Assembly: GCA_963813335.1 (NCBI GenBank)
Contig: CAWEYL010000001.1
Location: 416,001 to 480,000, forward strand
Origin: an uncultured Chloroflexia bacterium
GTDB taxonomy: Bacteria > Chloroflexota > Limnocylindria > Limnocylindrales > CSP1-4
DNA: 64,000 nt
Direction: 5' to 3'
In this document: one piece after another, positions 5,013 to 13,342 of the stretch
Layout of the letters: every line of letters begins with the position of its first letter
Position numbering within the stretch: position 1 is the stretch's first letter
The notes under the pieces: model-generated
What the model was told of the DNA's origin: nothing
The model's input: the letters and a program-made list of their open reading frames with translations, nothing else
The model's database searches: none
Position numbers and translations under genes: made by a program

Positions 5013-5948
5013 ATGGCAGCGAAGCGAACGGCCAAGGCGTCGCCAGCCTCGGGGACAGGACCCGGTCCGCTCGTCGACGTCGCGTGGCTGGCGGCCCACC
5101 TCGACGACCCGGACGTGCGCGTCGTGCACGTCTCGCCGGACAAGCGCGTCTACAACAAGCGCCACATCGCCGGCGCGACCTACTCCGACCTGCACAAGGA
5201 GCTGGCCCTCAAGGGCCGGGCGCCCGAGACCGGCGACGCCGAGCGCGAGTGGCTGGTGCCCTCGCGCGAGCAGGCGGAGGCCGTGCTCCGCCGCTGGCGG
5301 GTCGGCGAGGGCGACCGGATCGTCTTCTACGACGACATCGGGATGAACCGCCAGGCGATCCGCGGCTACTGGCTGATGCGCCTTTACCGCTTCCCGCAGG
5401 ACCGCCTGCACATCCTCGACGGCGGCATCGAGGCGTGGCGGCGCGCGGGCCAGGCGACGACCACGGAGCTCCCCGAGGCGGACCTCGCCGACGGGCTCCG
5501 CCGGCCGGTCGCCCTCGGCGAGCGCGACGATGACCTGATCGCGACCTACGACCAGGTCCTCGCCTGGAGCCGCGAATCGACCGCCGGCTCCGGTCCCGCC
5601 GCGGACCGACCGACGCGGATCCTCGACGTCCGGACGGCGGGCGAGTACGTCGGCACGGACCTGCGGGCCGCACGCGGCGGTCATATCCCGGGCGCCCGGC
5701 AGCGCTGCTTCGTGGACCTGCTGACCGACGAGGGCACGTTCCGCCCGGTCGACGACATGGTCGCGCTCGTGCGCGCGTCGGGCGCCGACCCGTCCGAGAT
5801 CCGCGCCACGTACTGCCAGGGCGGCGTCCGGGCCGCGCTGGTCTGGTTCGTCCTCCGCGAGCTGGCCGGCTTCGACGGCGTCCGCAGCTATGCCGGATCG
5901 TGGGAGGAGTGGGGGAACCGCCCCGACAGCCCGATCGAGGCACCCTAG
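5013..5948 (+). CDS. Tandem-domain rhodanese/sulfurtransferase
   Basis: HIAGA, LDGG, LDVRTAGEY, GHIPGA, active-site YCQGGVR, YAGSWEEW. Confidence 0.93.
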   Translation: MAAKRTAKASPASGTGPGPLVDVAWLAAHLDDPDVRVVHVSPDKRVYNKRHIAGATYSDLHKELALKGRAPETGDAEREWLVPSREQAEAVLRRWRVGEGDRIVFYDDIGMNRQAIRGYWLMRLYRFPQDRLHILDGGIEAWRRAGQATTTELPEADLADGLRRPVALGERDDDLIATYDQVLAWSRESTAGSGPAADRPTRILDVRTAGEYVGTDLRAARGGHIPGARQRCFVDLLTDEGTFRPVDDMVALVRASGADPSEIRATYCQGGVRAALVWFVLRELAGFDGVRSYAGSWEEWGNRPDSPIEAP

Positions 5949-6058: not shown

Positions 6059-6133
6059 TCCGGCGTAGCTCAGTGGTAGAGCGGGCGACTGTTAATCGCT
6101 TGGTCGTAAGTTCGAATCTTACCGCCGGAGCCA
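6059..6133 (+). tRNA. tRNA-Asn(GTT)
   Basis: Acceptor TCCGGCG/CGCCGGA, D-arm AGCTCAGTGGTAGAGC, anticodon loop CT-GTT-AA, GTTCGAAT, encoded CCA. Confidence 0.97.
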
Positions 6134-6490: not shown

Positions 6491-7718
6491 ATGCCCGTCC
6501 TGCGCCGCCGCCGGGTCGCCGACCGATCGGTCCTCGCCGCCTGGTCCGTGGCCGCCCTCGTCTGGGCAGCGGCGATCCCCCTGGCGACGCCGGCGCTTGC
6601 GGCAGGCCACGGCGCCCTGTTCGCGGTCGATGTCGAGCCGGATACCGCCAGCGACGTCACCGGGACGACGTTCGTGCTGCAGGCGACCCTGTACGACGCC
6701 GCCAACAACGTCTACGACGGCCCCGGGACCGACACGCACATCCGGTTCATCTGGGACGTCGGCACCCCGAACGAGCAGCCGGAGATGAGCTGCGATACCG
6801 GCACGAACGGCACGTGCTCGGTCAGCTACCAGGCCGACAATCCGGGCGAGGACACGATCTGCGTCCAGGCTGATGATGCCAAGTCCAAGTGCGGTCCGGT
6901 CGCCAGCCAAGAGCGCAACGACCTCGAAGACTGGATCTGGCGGACCGCGACCGAACCCACGCCCACGCCCACGCCCACCCCGACGCCCACGCCCACCCCC
7001 GACGCCCACGCCCACGACCCCCACGCCCACCCCGACCCCCACGCCCACCCCGACCCCCACGCCCACCCCGACCCCCACGCCCACCCCGACCCCCACGCCC
7101 ACCCCGACCCCCACGCCCACCCCGACCCCCACGCCCACCCCGACCCCCACGCCCACCCCGACCCCCACGCCCACCCCGAAGCCCACCCCGGCCCCGACGC
7201 CGAAGCCGACACCAGCCCCCACACCGACCCCGACTCCAACGCCCGAAGCCGTCGTCGCGCCGACCCCGACCCCCACGCCCACGCCGACCGCGACGCCGAA
7301 TCCCACCCCGACCCCGAGCGCGACGCCTGATCCGTCGCCGTCGCCGGTGATCGCACCCCTCCCATCACCGACCCAGACCCCGACCCCGACGGCGCCGCCG
7401 CACAGATCGACCGCGGTCGTCGGCACGACCGGCGCTGGGCCGGTCCCGGGTCCGAGCCCGGATCACGGCGGTCGCAAGCCGGTCGGTATCGTCGACGAGA
7501 TCAGCGACAACGTCGCCGCCGGTGTCTCGACCGTCGTCAAGCCCGCCGCGGCCGCCGCGGTCGCCACGACCTTCAGCTTCCCGCTGGCCCTGATGCTGAT
7601 CGTGCTCCTCTTCCTGCTCGTCCAGTCGCGCGTCGACCGTCGCGACCCGCGACTGAAGCAGGCCGTCGGCGCCGGACCGGAGGCGCTCATCGGCTTCGAG
7701 GACGAGGAACTCCTGTGA
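6491..7718 (+). CDS. Secreted, C-terminally membrane-anchored protein: signal peptide, Cys-containing beta-rich (Ig-like) domain, Pro/Thr stalk, TM helix (+1 frameshift in C5 run ~6996-7000)
   Basis: ORF 6491 gives signal peptide (…TPALA) and domain; ORF 6873 frame gives (PT)n and [26 protein letters not shown]; removing one C joins them. Confidence 0.75.
7017..7178 (+). repeat. 9 perfect tandem copies of 18-bp ACCCCCACGCCCACCCCG encoding (TP)n
   Basis: Read directly; degenerate copies flank it from ~6955 to ~7320. Confidence 0.95.
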
Positions 7719-10297
7719 CCGCTCGGGCGGCCACCGGTGCGGTGAACCCGCCGCTCCCAGTTCCGGCCGCATCCGCGATCGGTGGCCACGACCAGGCCCA
7801 CGCGGGCCGCGGGGACTTCACGTCGCTCAGCGACCGGATGTCGCACCTGCTCATCCTGCGGGTGGCGATCGGCGTGATCGTCTCCCTCTGGGCCGTGCTG
7901 GCACCCGAGGCGCTGGTCGAGCCGCTCGGGACGATCGGGGCCTGGACCGCCGCCTATCTCGCGTTCGCGGTCATCGGGGAGTGGGCCCGGCAGCGGACCA
8001 CCCGGTTCAATTACTGGATCCTCACCGGCCTGCTCCTGATGGACGGCGTCTACCTTGCCGCCGCGATGTACGCGACGGGCGGGACGCAGAGTCCGATCCG
8101 GTTCGTCGTCTACCTCCACCTCGTGGCGGTCTCGCTGCTGGCCTCGTACCGGACCGGCCTCAAGATCGCCCTATGGCACTCGCTGCTGCTGTTCGTCCTC
8201 CTCTATGCGCAGGCCGCCCGTCTCGTTACCGCGATCGAGGTCACTCCCGGGGTCGGCATCGAATTCGACCAGATGCCGGTCCTCAACGTCACGTCCTTCT
8301 GGCTGTTCGCGATCGCGACCTCGATCTTCTCCGCGCTCAACGAGCGCGAACTGCGACAGCGCCGCGCCGACCTGCAGGCGCTCGTCGACGTCGGCGCCAA
8401 GCTCGACACCGTCGCGGACGCGATCCGGCAGGCCGAGCTCGTGCTCGAGGCCCTCGTCGGACGCTTCGGCTTCGAGCGCGGCGTGCTGCTCGGCGAGTCG
8501 GATCGGCGGGTCGTCGTCCTCGCGACGCACGGCACGGCCGAGGCGCCGACGACCTCGAACGACCCCGACTGGATCGTGAGCCGCGCCTGGGAGCGCCGCG
8601 AGACCCTGCCCGTCAAACACCTCGACCCGACGCGCGACCCGCTGCTCGCGAAGCTCATGCCCGACGCGCGGAACGTCCTGGTCGCTCCGATGATCGCGGA
8701 CGGCCGGACGATCGGGGCCATCGTCGTCGAGCATCGCGCCCGGCGCCGGCCCGGCGTCGAGCGGCGCGTCGCGGCGATGCTCGGCCAGTTCGCGGCGATC
8801 GCCGCGCTGAACCTGCGCAACGCCGTGCTCCTCCAGCACGTGCAGGACCTCGCCGAGCGCGACTCCCTGACCGGCGCCGCCAACCGCCGCATGTTCCAGC
8901 TGGCGCTCGAGCGCGTCCTCGGTGCCAAGAAGGACGCCCATCCAGAGGACAAGGTCACCGCGGTCCTCTTCCTCGACCTCGACGACTTCAAGGTCGTGAA
9001 CGATACGCTCGGCCACGGGGCCGGCGACGCGCTCCTCGTGGCGGTCACCGAGCGCATCGAGGGGCTCGTCCGCGAGGGTGACCTGGTCGCCCGCCTCGGC
9101 GGCGACGAATTCGCGGTCCTCATCGAGGACGAGCCGTCGCTCAGCCGGGCCCGCTCGATGGCGGCACGCCTGGTCTACGAGCTCCGCGCGCCGTACATCC
9201 TCGGCGACAAGCACGTGGTGGTGTCCGCGTCGGTGGGCATCGCCAGTGCCCGCGATGCGATCGCGGGCGCGGCGGACCTCGTCCGCAATGCCGACGTCGC
9301 GATGTACATGGCCAAGGCCAACGGCAAGTCCGGCTTCTCGGTCTTCGACCCCGGCATGCACGAGGCCATGCGCGAGCGCCACGAGCTCAGCGTCGACCTC
9401 CAGCGCGCGGCGGACCTCGACCAGCTGGCCCTGATGTTCCAGCCGATCGTGAACCTCAAGACGGGCGGCTTGGCCGGTGTCGAGGCGCTCGTGCGCTGGC
9501 ACCACCCGGTGCATGGCCTGATCATGCCGGACCGCTTCATCGAGATCGCCGAGGAGACCGGGACGATCCTCCCGATCGGCCATTGGGTGCTCCGCCACGC
9601 GTGTCTCGAGGCCGCGGACTGGCTGGCCGAGGGGCAGGTCCCGCCCGAGACGTTCGTCAGCGTCAACGTGTCGGCCCGCGAGATCCAGCAGCTCGGCTTC
9701 GTCGACGGCGTCAAGGCCGTGCTCGGCGAGTCCGGCCTCGATCCGAAGCGCCTGGTCCTCGAGATCACCGAGACCGCGCTGCTGCGCGCCACGCCGACGA
9801 CGGTCGCCACACTCGAGGCGGTCCGGGCGATGGGCGTGCGCACCGTCATCGACGACTTCGGGACCGGCTACTTCTCGCTCAGCCACCTGCGCCAGTTCCC
9901 GGTCGATGCGCTCAAGATCGCCAAGGAGTTCGTGCAGGACGTCGACGAGGCGTCCAAGTCGTCTGCGCTGGCCGGCGCGATCATCGCGATGAGCCGCTCG
10001 CTCGGCATCGAGACTGTCGCGGAGGGGATCGAGACGTCCGAGCAGGCGGACCGGATGCAGCGCCTCGGCTGCGCCTTCGGCCAGGGCTACGCGTTCGCGC
10101 GCCCGATGGATGTCGCCGACCTGCTGGCGAGCTTCGGGGTCATGCCCGCCGAGATCGCCGCATCCGCCCCGGCGGCCAGGGCCGCCACGAAGCGGACGAA
10201 GGCGACTGTCGAGGCGGCGGTCGACGCCACCACGCGACGCGTCGCGGCCAAGGTCGTGCCGCCGACCCGGCCGACGCGCCGACCGGCCGGCGCCTGA
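7715..10297 (+). CDS. Membrane diguanylate cyclase/phosphodiesterase (multi-TM, GAF, GGDEF, EAL)
   Basis: [26 protein letters not shown]-site, RLGGDEF, VEALVRW, DDFGTG, VAEGIE; GTGA overlap with upstream gene. Confidence 0.95.
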
Positions 10298-11008: not shown

Positions 11009-11679
11009 CGCTGCGCCACCGTGCCCGACGCGTCCGCTGCGCTCGTCGGCACGCCCCTCGCGTCCGCCGGCGCGTCGAGGTGGCAGTCCTCGTTCCAGGT
11101 CTCGATGACCGGACGGTCGCGGTCCCAGCCGAGGATCGACACGGTCGCGGTCGAGAGGGCGAAGAGCCCGCCCGAGGCGCCGGGCATCCCGAGCCACCGC
11201 GCGCCGAGGACGCGCAGCAGGTGGCCGTGGCTGAAGAGCAGGGTGTCGCCCCCGATGCCGGACGCCAGGCAGCGGGCGATGACCCGGTCCGCGCGGGCGG
11301 TGACGTCGTCGATGGTCTCGCCACCGGGCCAAGGGCCGGACCAGATGGACCAGTCCGGGAACTCGGCACGGATGTCGGCGGTCAGGCGGCCCTCGAGCGC
11401 GCCATAGTCCCACTCCATGAGGTCCGGGTCGGGCTCGGCGAGCTCGCCGAACCCGGCGAGCCGCGCGGTGTCGGCCGCGCGGGAGAGGGGACTCGTCAGG
11501 ACGAGGGCGAACGCGTGGCCCTCGAGCCGCCGGCCGAGGGCCCCGGCCTGCGTTCGCCCGACCCCGGTCAACGGGATGTCGGTCCGACCGGTATGGCGGC
11601 CGAGGCGCGCCCACTCGGTCTCGCCATGGCGGACCAGCCAGACCTGGCGCTCGGGTGCGCCCTGCGGCACGTCCGTCAT
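11005..11679 (-). CDS. Histidine phosphatase family protein
   Basis: LVRHGETEW, SPLSRA, EWDYG, SHG motifs. Confidence 0.92.
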   Translation of the reverse strand: MTDVPQGAPERQVWLVRHGETEWARLGRHTGRTDIPLTGVGRTQAGALGRRLEGHAFALVLTSPLSRAADTARLAGFGELAEPDPDLMEWDYGALEGRLTADIRAEFPDWSIWSGPWPGGETIDDVTARADRVIARCLASGIGGDTLLFSHGHLLRVLGARWLGMPGASGGLFALSTATVSILGWDRDRPVIETWNEDCHLDAPADARGVPTSAADASGTVAQR

Positions 11680-12278
11680 CCGGCGGACCCGGCGTCCGAT
11701 CCATCGCCCGTGTCCAGCGCCACGTCCGGGCGGGTCGCGGCGGCCGGATCCGGCGTGAAGAAGTCCCGGGGCCGCCAGCCGAGCAGCCCGGCCAGCATGT
11801 TCGTCGGGACCTGCGAGATCCTCGTGTTGTAGCGATAGACCTGGTCGTTGTAGAGCTCGCGGCGGTCCGCGATGATCCCCTCGAGGCGCTCGATCTCGGA
11901 CTGCAGGTCGGCCACGTTGGCCGCCGACTTGATGTCGGGGTAGCGCTCGACCGTCGCGAACAGGGTTCGGATCGCCGCGCTCGTCTGGGCGGAGACCCCG
12001 GCCTGCGCGGGGATCGGGGCGCTCGGCGCGTAGGCGGCACGGGCACGGGTGACCTCGGTGAGGACGTCGCGCTCGTAGGTCATCAGGCCCCGGACGGCCT
12101 CCACCAGACTGGGCAGCTGATCGTGGCGCTGCTGCAGCGCCACGCCGATGTTCGCCCACGCCTTGTCGATCCGCTGTCGGAGTGCCATGACAGCGTTGTA
12201 GCTTGCTACCACGATGTACGCCACGACGAGCACCACGACCCCGATCGCGAAGACGGCCGCGTAGGACGCTGCGTTCAC
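11676..12278 (-). CDS. lemA: LemA family protein
   Basis: N-terminal TM, AWANI..LQQRHD.LP.L, ERYPDIKS, RRELYN..V..YN. Confidence 0.92.
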   Translation of the reverse strand: MNAASYAAVFAIGVVVLVVAYIVVASYNAVMALRQRIDKAWANIGVALQQRHDQLPSLVEAVRGLMTYERDVLTEVTRARAAYAPSAPIPAQAGVSAQTSAAIRTLFATVERYPDIKSAANVADLQSEIERLEGIIADRRELYNDQVYRYNTRISQVPTNMLAGLLGWRPRDFFTPDPAAATRPDVALDTGDGSDAGSAG

Positions 12279-13342
12279 GATCCGAACCCGCCGTCGAGCA
12301 TGATCGCGAAGACCATCGCCGACCCGATGGCCAGCACCGCCCCGAGCAGCCCGACGAGGAAGCGGTCCTGTTGGCGCTCGGCGGCGGCGCCCGGGCTGCC
12401 GTAGGCGATCAGGAGCGGGCCATCGGGCACGGCCGCCACCACGAGCGTGTCGGGCGCGATCGCGAACGTGCGCTCCACCCGCGCCGCCTCCGCGGCGTCC
12501 CCGAGCGGCAGCGGGTCGGCCGCGGGGTCGATCGTCGCCGGCCGGACCGGGCGACCGATCCCGAACCCGGGGATCGCGGCATTCCCCCAGGCCTCGGCCG
12601 GGTCGTCGGCCAGGGCACCAGCCTCACGCGCCTCGGCGAGGTCCATCGCGACGTCGGGATCGTCCGCCAGGCCGTCCGACCCCAGGCCGACGTCGGCGCC
12701 GGCCGGGTCGCCCACGTCGCCGAAGGGGAGCGCCTGGCCGACGATCGTGATGAGGTCGCCCGGCTCGAGCCGCGACTCCCGATAGCCGCGGGCGCGCCCG
12801 CCCGTCGTCAGGAACGCGGGATCCGCCGAGCCCTCCGGTACGCGGACCCGCAGCAGGTCCTCGATCTGCGCGGCCGTGTCGGGCTCGGCGGCGCGGAACG
12901 CGCCACCGCTGCGCAGCGCCAGCCCGGCCGGCGGCTCGCCGAACGTGCCGGACCTATCGCCCCAGCGCTCGGGCGCATCGATGTGCGCGCCACGTGGGAA
13001 GACGCGCAGGTCGCCCGAGCCGTCGCGGATGCGGAAGCCCACGGCGCGCTCCTCGACGAGGCCGCCGCCGGTCGCGGTCCCGTCGTCGCCGTCGTCGATG
13101 ACCGCGCGGTAGTAGACGCACGGCACGCTCTGGAGCAGCGAGACCAGCGTCACCTCGGCCGGTTCGATCGTCCCGCTGACGCGGACCTCGCCGGCCGCGA
13201 TCGAGGCGATCGCCGAGGTCGACGTGTCGGCGATCCGGGTGGCCATCCCGCGCCCGCGCATCCCGCGGCCGAGAAGCGCCAGGCCGCCGGCGACCCCCAC
13301 CGCGGACACCGCCGCGACCGACGGGATGAAGGTGACGTCCAC
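12275..13342 (-). CDS. GIDE/BAM-like domain membrane protein
   Basis: TM helices at both ends, IADTSTSAIASIAAGEVRVSG, PCVYY, FRIRDGSG, ESRLEPGD; adjacent to lemA. Confidence 0.75.
   Translation of the reverse strand: MDVTFIPSVAAVSAVGVAGGLALLGRGMRGRGMATRIADTSTSAIASIAAGEVRVSGTIEPAEVTLVSLLQSVPCVYYRAVIDDGDDGTATGGGLVEERAVGFRIRDGSGDLRVFPRGAHIDAPERWGDRSGTFGEPPAGLALRSGGAFRAAEPDTAAQIEDLLRVRVPEGSADPAFLTTGGRARGYRESRLEPGDLITIVGQALPFGDVGDPAGADVGLGSDGLADDPDVAMDLAEAREAGALADDPAEAWGNAAIPGFGIGRPVRPATIDPAADPLPLGDAAEAARVERTFAIAPDTLVVAAVPDGPLLIAYGSPGAAAERQQDRFLVGLLGAVLAIGSAMVFAIMLDGGFGS

Follow-up and report, generated by a model that had tools for sequence, protein, structure and literature searches.

To our knowledge, the input signal is unknown for most membrane-bound enzymes of cyclic di-GMP (c-di-GMP) signaling, especially for those that consist of a polytopic membrane domain without an outer sensor. 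In Pseudomonas aeruginosa, a distinct membrane sensor, IsmP, inhibits the diguanylate cyclase ImcA, which has six transmembrane (TM) helices (6TM); their interaction needs the TM regions of both partners (PMC10904736). PilS, the founding member of the Pfam family PF25323, senses the helix of the pilin PilA within the membrane (PMC6058289, PMC7196804). Caulobacter PilA binds TM1 of PleC and raises c-di-GMP via PleD (PMC7196804). YycH and YycI act on WalK through TM domains (PMC7355866). In the present study, we analyzed a stretch of 64,000 nucleotides from an uncultured Chloroflexia bacterium (contig CAWEYL010000001.1, positions 416,001 to 480,000; hereafter the window), which contains two overlapping genes. 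The upstream gene encodes a stalked surface protein with a conserved C-terminal tail, and the downstream gene encodes a 6TM-GAF-GGDEF-EAL enzyme. We consider the chances to be slightly better than even that this translationally coupled two-gene module is a split transmembrane receptor for c-di-GMP signaling, in which the tail is docked on the 6TM domain of the enzyme.

The tail and the enzyme are linked across genomes. In the window's genus, a clear tail match (E<=1.7e-10) was found in 7 of 24 genomes with an enzyme homologue directly downstream in 7/7, and the two genes were either both present or both absent (6/15 genomes). In a draw of 301 genomes from the same class, the tail profile matched 44 genomes; by family, it was detected in f1 (18/91) and f4 (25/103) and in none of the 106 genomes of three others. 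The 6TM domain was present in 46 of the 301 genomes, namely, the same 44 tail genomes and two with divergent homologues. All 44 tails were located directly upstream of a 6TM gene, and 44 of the 46 genomes with the 6TM domain also had the tail. The enzyme gene was adjacent in all 29 class loci that were fetched, with identities of 57-77%. An earlier interpretation of the window, made from its letters and open reading frames (ORFs) and hereafter called the sequence-only reading, had proposed this co-occurrence as a check, and the class draw bears it out. Homologues without a tail were found in G169 (L051), in which a full-length enzyme (45% identical) has a MurJ-like gene upstream on the other strand, and in G245 (L052), in which a protein of 492 residues (39% identical) comprises the TM domain and EAL only. 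Two unpublished genomes, G189 (L029) and G893 (L074), were included in the tallies and left out of the alignments and the tree, and no conclusion depends on them.

The pair is also found beyond this class. Among 401 genomes drawn from the phylum, the tail was present in just one other family (2/17 genomes), where one tail is attached to an NHL propeller and the other to a beta-helix/Ig protein; directly downstream of each is a TM-GAF-GGDEF gene that is 38-40% identical to that of the window. In three named metagenome-assembled genomes of Acidimicrobiia, a tail protein of approximately 215-235 residues precedes a TM-GAF-GGDEF protein of 537-556 residues without EAL. In a draw of 301 Acidimicrobiia genomes, 15 had the tail and 18 had the 6TM domain. 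The 6TM gene was directly downstream in 14 of the 15 tail loci, the exception being a fragment with stop codons. In the four genomes that had the 6TM domain and no tail above the threshold, we found two divergent tails upstream, one degenerate tail, and one contig end. WhiB-like proteins are a hallmark of Actinomycetota. WhiB-family genes numbered 3-5 in each of three Acidimicrobiia genomes, and none was found in the window's genome (81% complete) or in two of its phylum-mates (90-93% complete). Therefore, the window's genome is probably not actinobacterial. The tail-enzyme module spans two phyla. The sequence-only reading had mentioned similar tails beside GGDEF genes in Actinobacteria, which is correct for Acidimicrobiia and does not extend to the window's own organism.

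In a tree of 53 6TM domains, each of three taxon groups was located on one side of a well-supported branch. The two families of the window's class were intermixed, and the window's genus was divided among three clades. This pattern hints at exchange of the module between lineages or at its differential loss, either of which it would fit.

The two genes share their stop and start codons. As the sequence-only reading had described, the TGA stop of the tail and the GTG start of the 860-residue enzyme ORF overlap in the sequence GTGA (Table 1). The tail stop was TGA in all 58 loci compared (57 distinct). An NTGA overlap with an in-frame enzyme start was present in 47 of these loci and a TGATG overlap in five, while the remaining six consisted of one locus with a 3-nucleotide gap and five with frame problems. 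When the duplicate locus and both unpublished genomes were excluded, 44 of the remaining 55 loci had the NTGA overlap. The stop-start overlap is retained across phyla.

The tail itself is composed of an amphipathic pre-membrane segment, FSFP with the TM helix, a cytoplasmic motif, and an acidic end (F-EDEELL). Its wider consensus is FxFPxxLxxxVxxFLxxQxRxDxxDPKLxxAPxxxxxxxxF-x. In an alignment of 34 tails, approximately 30 conserved residues follow the TM helix, and F40, P41, L44, Q55, D59, and P63 were invariant in every row. Since 13 of these rows come from loci with a broken reading frame, the tail is under selection there. No Pfam or NCBIfam model matched the tail (E<=0.1), and the 21 close homologues listed were all unnamed or annotated as 'hypothetical protein' and had no Pfam domain. 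The tail profile matched 1340 of 1.84 billion cluster representatives at E<=1e-3, 144 of them at E<=1e-10. Of the best 150 of the 1340 matches, almost every one extended to within a few residues of the C-terminal end, except for P0100, P0083, and some short fragments. P0100 and P0083 were considered as natural fusions of the tail and the enzyme and were rejected, both being frame-shifted read-throughs. No natural fusion was found among these best 150 representatives.

The ectodomains that are carried by this common tail vary. They are Ig-like, VWA, VWA with DUF7507, NHL, or none, and some partners are nearly without an ectodomain (approximately 200 residues, mostly of low complexity). The conservation of the tail motif and the variability of the N-terminal domains had both been suggested as checks in the sequence-only reading, and the alignments and the ectodomains agree with what it expected. 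The number of tail genes was one in the window's genome and one or two per genome elsewhere. At one locus (L078; G716:C15), two tandem tail genes (~810-935 and 1504-1644) are located ahead of one enzyme gene. Tail genes without an adjacent enzyme gene were observed at L069 (G680:C30) and L070 (G681:C55), one of which is beside an MFS transporter and the other before an RsgA-like GTPase. In known C-terminal sorting signals, a short motif and a helix are followed by a few terminal basic residues; such signals have many clients per genome and a dedicated sorting enzyme. With approximately 30 residues after the helix and one or two genes per genome, the tail does not belong to the LPXTG, PEP-CTERM, or GlyGly-CTERM type, and the earlier proposal of a general sorting signal fits it poorly.

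The enzyme is predicted to contain both c-di-GMP output domains in an intact form. GGDEF matched PF00990 with an E-value of 1.9e-38 (132.2 bits; cut-off, 23.8), as a diguanylate cyclase domain would, and the motif scan placed RxxD and GGDEF at residues 453-466. EAL matched PF00563 with an E-value of 1e-70 (238.2 bits; cut-off, 31.3), which would be expected of a phosphodiesterase domain, and its motifs were located at residues 590 (EAL), 713 (DDFGTG), 770 (EGIE), and 790 (QGY). The GGDEF and EAL catalytic motifs are intact by these scans, and the sequence-only reading was right on these motifs and on the I-site. GAF reached 27.4 bits with PF01590 (cut-off, 22.4), and GAF_2 was just below its cut-off (28.1 versus 28.6 bits). 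No NCBIfam equivalog reached its cut-off with the enzyme, and the LapD model NF045673 gave 116.5 bits versus 1020. The window's genome had 18 GGDEF matches, two pairs of which are pieces of frame-split genes, and the PilS-like domain was found in this one GGDEF gene only.

The enzyme has no sizeable outer domain, and its membrane part appears to be PilS-like rather than of the MASE type. The membrane domains of 34 orthologues were excised and compared with Pfam one at a time (E<=1). PF25323 matched 32 of the 34 domains (best E, 3.5e-10), and 22 of the 30 nearest ESM Atlas clusters belong to the set that carries PF25323. Judging from these profile matches, the 6TM domain is a member of PF25323 or a close neighbor of it. 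The sequence-only reading had suggested a MASE-type membrane domain; however, no MASE family matched the enzyme (E<=0.1) or the 34 membrane domains (E<=1). The pair is also not of the PilS-PilR two-component type: the enzyme has no kinase domain and its partner is no pilin. TGGTQSP and a second stretch of 18 residues, both of which had been described as motif-like in the earlier reading, were confirmed to lie in the most conserved part of the membrane domain. AlphaFold2 modeled the 6TM domain as six helices, with the last extended into a long helix, at a predicted local distance difference test (pLDDT) score of 70.8. A Foldseek search with this model returned nothing at E<=1e-3. In VIA comparisons, almost the entire model aligned with membrane cyclases, namely, with ImcA at a Z score of 13.7 (root-mean-square deviation, 5.5; 195 residues; 11% identity) and with human AC5 (8sl3), AC9, and Rv1625c (7yzk) at Z scores of 15.4, 13.5, and 9.2, respectively (163-193 residues), while unrelated rows had Z scores of 8.6 or less with at most approximately 100 residues aligned. 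We regard these likenesses as resemblance only, and a Z score of approximately 13 may reflect a common arrangement of helical bundles.

The loop SYRTGLK (residues 144-150) may be close to the site at which the tail would dock. It was conserved in every one of the 34 paired domains and in three additional domains. K150 was lost in 4/4 cases, namely, the tail-less homologues of G169 and G245 and two enzymes whose partners have degenerate tails. This correlation of K150 loss with tail decay is small, and the four cases are not independent of phylogeny; nevertheless, it points to a possible contact site. When the tail and 6TM columns of 49 pairs were compared by mutual information, only clade effects emerged, and this signal was not used.

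The upstream gene was not a single ORF. The ORF at 6491..7330 (+; 279 residues) encodes an N-terminus that is first basic and then hydrophobic, followed by a domain containing four Cys residues and by the onset of the Pro/Thr repeat. The ORF at 6873..7718 (+), in the next frame, encodes the bulk of the repeat, a Pro-rich spacer, and the tail. The frame of 6491 runs out of register beyond a run of five C and reaches a stop at 7330. When one C of this run is skipped (6491-6997 joined to 6999-7718), a continuous protein of 169 and 239 residues is obtained. The stalk repeat has a period of 18 nucleotides with 19.1 copies. The sequence-only reading had described a stalked Ig-like receptor; the signal-like start, the Ig-like fold, the Pro/Thr repeat, and the TM tail were all found, whereas the single ORF was not, the frame break at 6996-7000 having been overlooked.

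AlphaFold2 predicted the ectodomain to be a seven-strand beta-sandwich (pLDDT, 90.2; predicted TM-score, 0.82). In Foldseek searches, this model resembled macroglobulin, Calx-beta, and CARDB-like sandwiches (TM-scores of 0.5-0.6; best E, 1e-3). The four Cys residues were invariant in 20 orthologues. The ectodomain is not a member of Big_1 (PF02369; 15.6 bits versus a cut-off of 34.9), and Filamin was also far below its cut-off. Based on the model, 'Ig-like' is correct as a fold class, and the term carries no information on a ligand.

The frame break is probably an indel error that arose in a repeat of high GC content and low complexity; the alternative is real slippage. In related loci in which the Ig-like part and the tail were both found, the receptor frame was continuous in 8/24 and broken in 16/24. 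Breaks were present in 13 of 16 assemblies with 10 or fewer contigs and in 3 of 8 assemblies with 30 or more contigs. They are located within the Pro/Thr repeat, and both their place and their direction (+1 or -1) vary among genomes (L002-L047). Therefore, a conserved programmed ribosomal frameshift was ruled out. Assembled contigs from four soil runs of one study were compared with this region. The Pro/Thr repeat was spanned by no piece of these contigs. Two short contigs of soil run X2 were missing one base precisely at 6996; we take this as a weak hint, since these contigs also differ elsewhere and sit in a pile-up of many unrelated Pro/Thr repeats. Two other GGDEF genes in the same genome are also split between frames (G000:C1:507981-508458 and G000:C6:59805-60273), which suggests assembly indel errors or additional broken genes.

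It is unlikely that the frameshift in the receptor gene of the window is real, which would make this gene a pseudogene or an on/off switch based on repeat slippage. In that case, the enzyme would function alone or would be poorly translated because the coupling to the upstream frame is lost. The break is present in the assembly, and breaks also occur in three of the eight fragmented assemblies, which we took to be short-read assemblies. However, the inconstant place and direction of the breaks, their higher frequency in assemblies with few contigs, the retention of every invariant residue in the tails of broken loci, the other split GGDEF genes, and, weakly, the two short contigs without the extra base all argue against a true frameshift. 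A true frameshift would concern the state of this copy only, and is compatible with every other reading of the module.

We propose the following mechanism for the split receptor. The first gene would encode a type-I single-pass surface protein in which the signal peptide is followed by an Ig-like ectodomain with disulfide bonds and by a long stalk rich in Pro and Thr. This protein ends in a conserved tail of approximately 60 residues, made up of the amphipathic segment, FxFP with a TM helix that terminates in Q, the cytoplasmic RxDxxDPKL, and the conserved F. The second gene encodes the PilS-like 6TM-GAF-GGDEF-EAL enzyme, which has no large outer domain of its own. The tail helix and the cytoplasmic motif may bind to the 6TM domain, with the docking site probably close to the invariant loop SYRTGLK. 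The stimulus at the ectodomain or stalk may be a ligand, contact with a surface or the cell wall, or merely the amount of the partner in the membrane. The state of the ectodomain and stalk would be relayed via the 6TM bundle and GAF, and this relay would shift the balance between c-di-GMP synthesis and breakdown. The architecture, conservation, and linkage, the shared stop and start codons, and the variety of ectodomains are observations, whereas docking, outside-in signaling, and the kind of stimulus are proposed. A single-pass partner with a variable outer part, an enzyme with only a helical bundle in the membrane, and tight linkage with overlapping codons are together what a split receptor with a docked tail would be expected to show.

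Several observations weigh against this proposal. In two of three Acidimicrobiia genomes, an orphan second tail gene is located far from any 6TM gene; therefore, the tail can exist without an adjacent enzyme. Conversely, a second 6TM copy (G977, L090) has no visible upstream tail. The window's own 6TM domain scored 17.5, 22.3, and 24.7 bits, under the PF25323 cut-off of 27. Should the receptor-frame breaks be genuine, the module would be either defective or switchable in the window and in 16 of the 24 related loci. Moreover, the co-occurrence counts overstate the evidence because adjacent genes are gained and lost in single events and relatives are not independent.

The same linkage would be expected if signaling ran from the inside outward, with the enzyme, or c-di-GMP bound to its I-site, acting via the 6TM domain on the display, stability, clustering, or cleavage of the partner and giving an adhesin-like output in the style of LapD-LapG-LapA. 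Linkage supports this arrangement and the split receptor equally; Ig-like, VWA, and NHL ectodomains on a long stalk are typical of adhesins, and the enzyme has the RxxD I-site that such control would use. However, its GGDEF and EAL motifs appear catalytically intact and not those of degenerate receptor domains, the LapD model scored far below its cut-off, no protease gene was seen in the loci read through, and the partners of approximately 200 residues have almost no ectodomain to display. We regard inside-out control as rather improbable. The orphan tail genes and the position of the tail at the very C-terminus, which is like that of known sorting signals, would also suit a tail that makes no direct contact with the enzyme and serves as a membrane anchor or as a localization or sorting signal, the two genes being co-expressed in a surface program controlled by c-di-GMP. 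The small number of tail genes per genome, the conserved cytoplasmic residues beyond the helix, the confinement of the tail in the class draw to genomes with this 6TM domain, the loss of K150 that accompanies tail loss or decay, and the overlapping stop and start kept across phyla are all difficult to reconcile with this explanation. No adjacent sortase-like gene was seen in the loci read through, and a separate search for sorting enzymes was not made. A tail without contact appears, by a small step, even less probable to us than inside-out control.

The positions of the features are listed in Table 1. The two-gene module is bounded by a tRNA-Asn gene (GTT; 6059-6133) directly upstream of the receptor gene and by convergent genes downstream. 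These surroundings include, as read by eye, a LemA-like ORF (11676-12278, -) and a membrane-protein ORF (12275-13342, -), and a rhodanese gene (5013-5948; Pfam) lies upstream; no link of any of these three to the module was seen.

Table 1. Features of the receptor gene and the enzyme gene (positions in the window)
Feature	Position	Strand	Basis
Receptor gene, N-terminal part, including the first Pro/Thr repeats	6491..6997	+	ORF list, translation
Signal-peptide-like start	~6491-6601	+	Hydrophobic segment, residues 15-29; boundaries inferred
Ig-like beta-sandwich with four Cys	~6596-6946	+	AlphaFold2, Foldseek
Pro/Thr-rich stalk repeat	6956..7297	+	Tandem Repeats Finder
C5 run with one C too many (frame break)	6996..7000	+	Comparison of two reading frames
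Receptor gene, C-terminal part: stalk, low-complexity spacer, tail, stop	6999..7718	+	Shifted-frame translation
Conserved tail module, 85 residues	7461..7715	+	Alignments
FSFP and single TM helix of the tail	~7566-7622	+	Alignments
Cytoplasmic motif of the tail (RxDxxDPKL type)	7623-7655	+	Alignments
GTGA overlap (TGA, tail stop; GTG, enzyme start)	7715..7718	+	Sequence
c-di-GMP enzyme, 6TM-GAF-GGDEF-EAL, 860 residues	7715..10297	+	ORF, Pfam, motif scan
PilS-like six-helix membrane domain	7823..8335	+	PF25323, AlphaFold2
TGGTQSP	8075-8095	+	Outer loop by inference
SYRTGLK	8144-8164	+	Cytoplasmic loop by inference
GAF	8432..8806	+	PF01590, residues 240-364
GGDEF with RxxD I-site	8855..9328	+	PF00990, residues 381-538
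EAL	9395..10105	+	PF00563, residues 561-797

A wider interpretation is possible, and we put it forward tentatively. The tail may be a portable plug, present in at least two phyla of single-membrane bacteria, that connects exchangeable outer domains (Ig-like, VWA, NHL propeller, beta-helix, or no more than a stalk) for signaling to one conserved type of PilS-like 6TM c-di-GMP enzyme. Orphan and tandem tails would then represent many-to-one wiring, and the Pro/Thr stalk would be a wall-spanning spring that reports contact with a surface or the cell wall by mechanical means, similar to the yeast sensor Wsc1. If this interpretation is true, the module represents a new family of split c-di-GMP receptors.

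The principle of a split sensor is known. The tail, its pairing with a PilS-like 6TM-GAF-GGDEF(-EAL) enzyme, and the range of this pair are undescribed as far as we searched; no description of the tail-enzyme pair was found in the titles and abstracts covered. The available part of a review of sensory input to c-di-GMP enzymes (PMC8846402) names LapD, and 'PilS' and 'PilO' do not occur in that part. For one family of enzymes that have only a polytopic domain in the membrane, the module offers a testable answer to the question of input, namely, a separate single-pass sensor that would be recognized via its tail. The two overlapping genes make up a small unit, which has been retained in uncultured lineages from soil and freshwater in two phyla and may be transferred to a laboratory host. 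Furthermore, the tail provides an annotation handle for the 1340 matching cluster representatives.

Among known systems, LapD carries HAMP and periplasmic domains and works through a protease as a degenerate receptor for c-di-GMP. LapD-LapG-LapA and the present module both have a membrane GGDEF-EAL protein, which in the former is functionally tied to a large surface adhesin. However, the catalytic motifs of the present enzyme are intact, and its score with the LapD model does not place it in the LapD type. The class III adenylyl cyclases AC5, AC9, and Rv1625c appear, from the models, to share a six-helix bundle, a long signaling helix, and a nucleotide cyclase fold with the present enzyme; this likeness is structural only, with 10-13% identity, and the output enzymes differ. 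YycH and YycI of Firmicutes are single-pass auxiliaries with outer domains that contact WalK through TM helices in a monoderm envelope, as the tail protein may do here. In contrast to the present pair, WalK is a histidine kinase with two TM helices, the auxiliaries are anchored N-terminally, and there is no sequence similarity to the module.

The PilA-PilS and PilA-PleC-PleD systems are closer. In both, as is proposed here, the single helix of a bitopic protein is sensed by a TM domain, and the output in Caulobacter is c-di-GMP. The differences are that the output here is GAF-GGDEF-EAL on the same chain and not a histidine kinase with a response regulator, and that the partner is not a pilin and has a C-terminal helix with a cytoplasmic motif; no pilus genes were seen nearby. 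IsmP-ImcA (PMC10904736; structure, 8wcn) differs in that IsmP is a large CHASE4-PAS-GGDEF-EAL protein, the PAS domain of which contacts the cyclase, whereas the partner here is a single-pass protein with a short tail and the enzyme has an additional GAF domain and an EAL domain that looks active. Nevertheless, a six-helix cyclase without an outer sensor is controlled there by a separate membrane protein with an outer sensor, as is proposed for the tail protein and its enzyme, and IsmP-ImcA is the closest known system to the present module.

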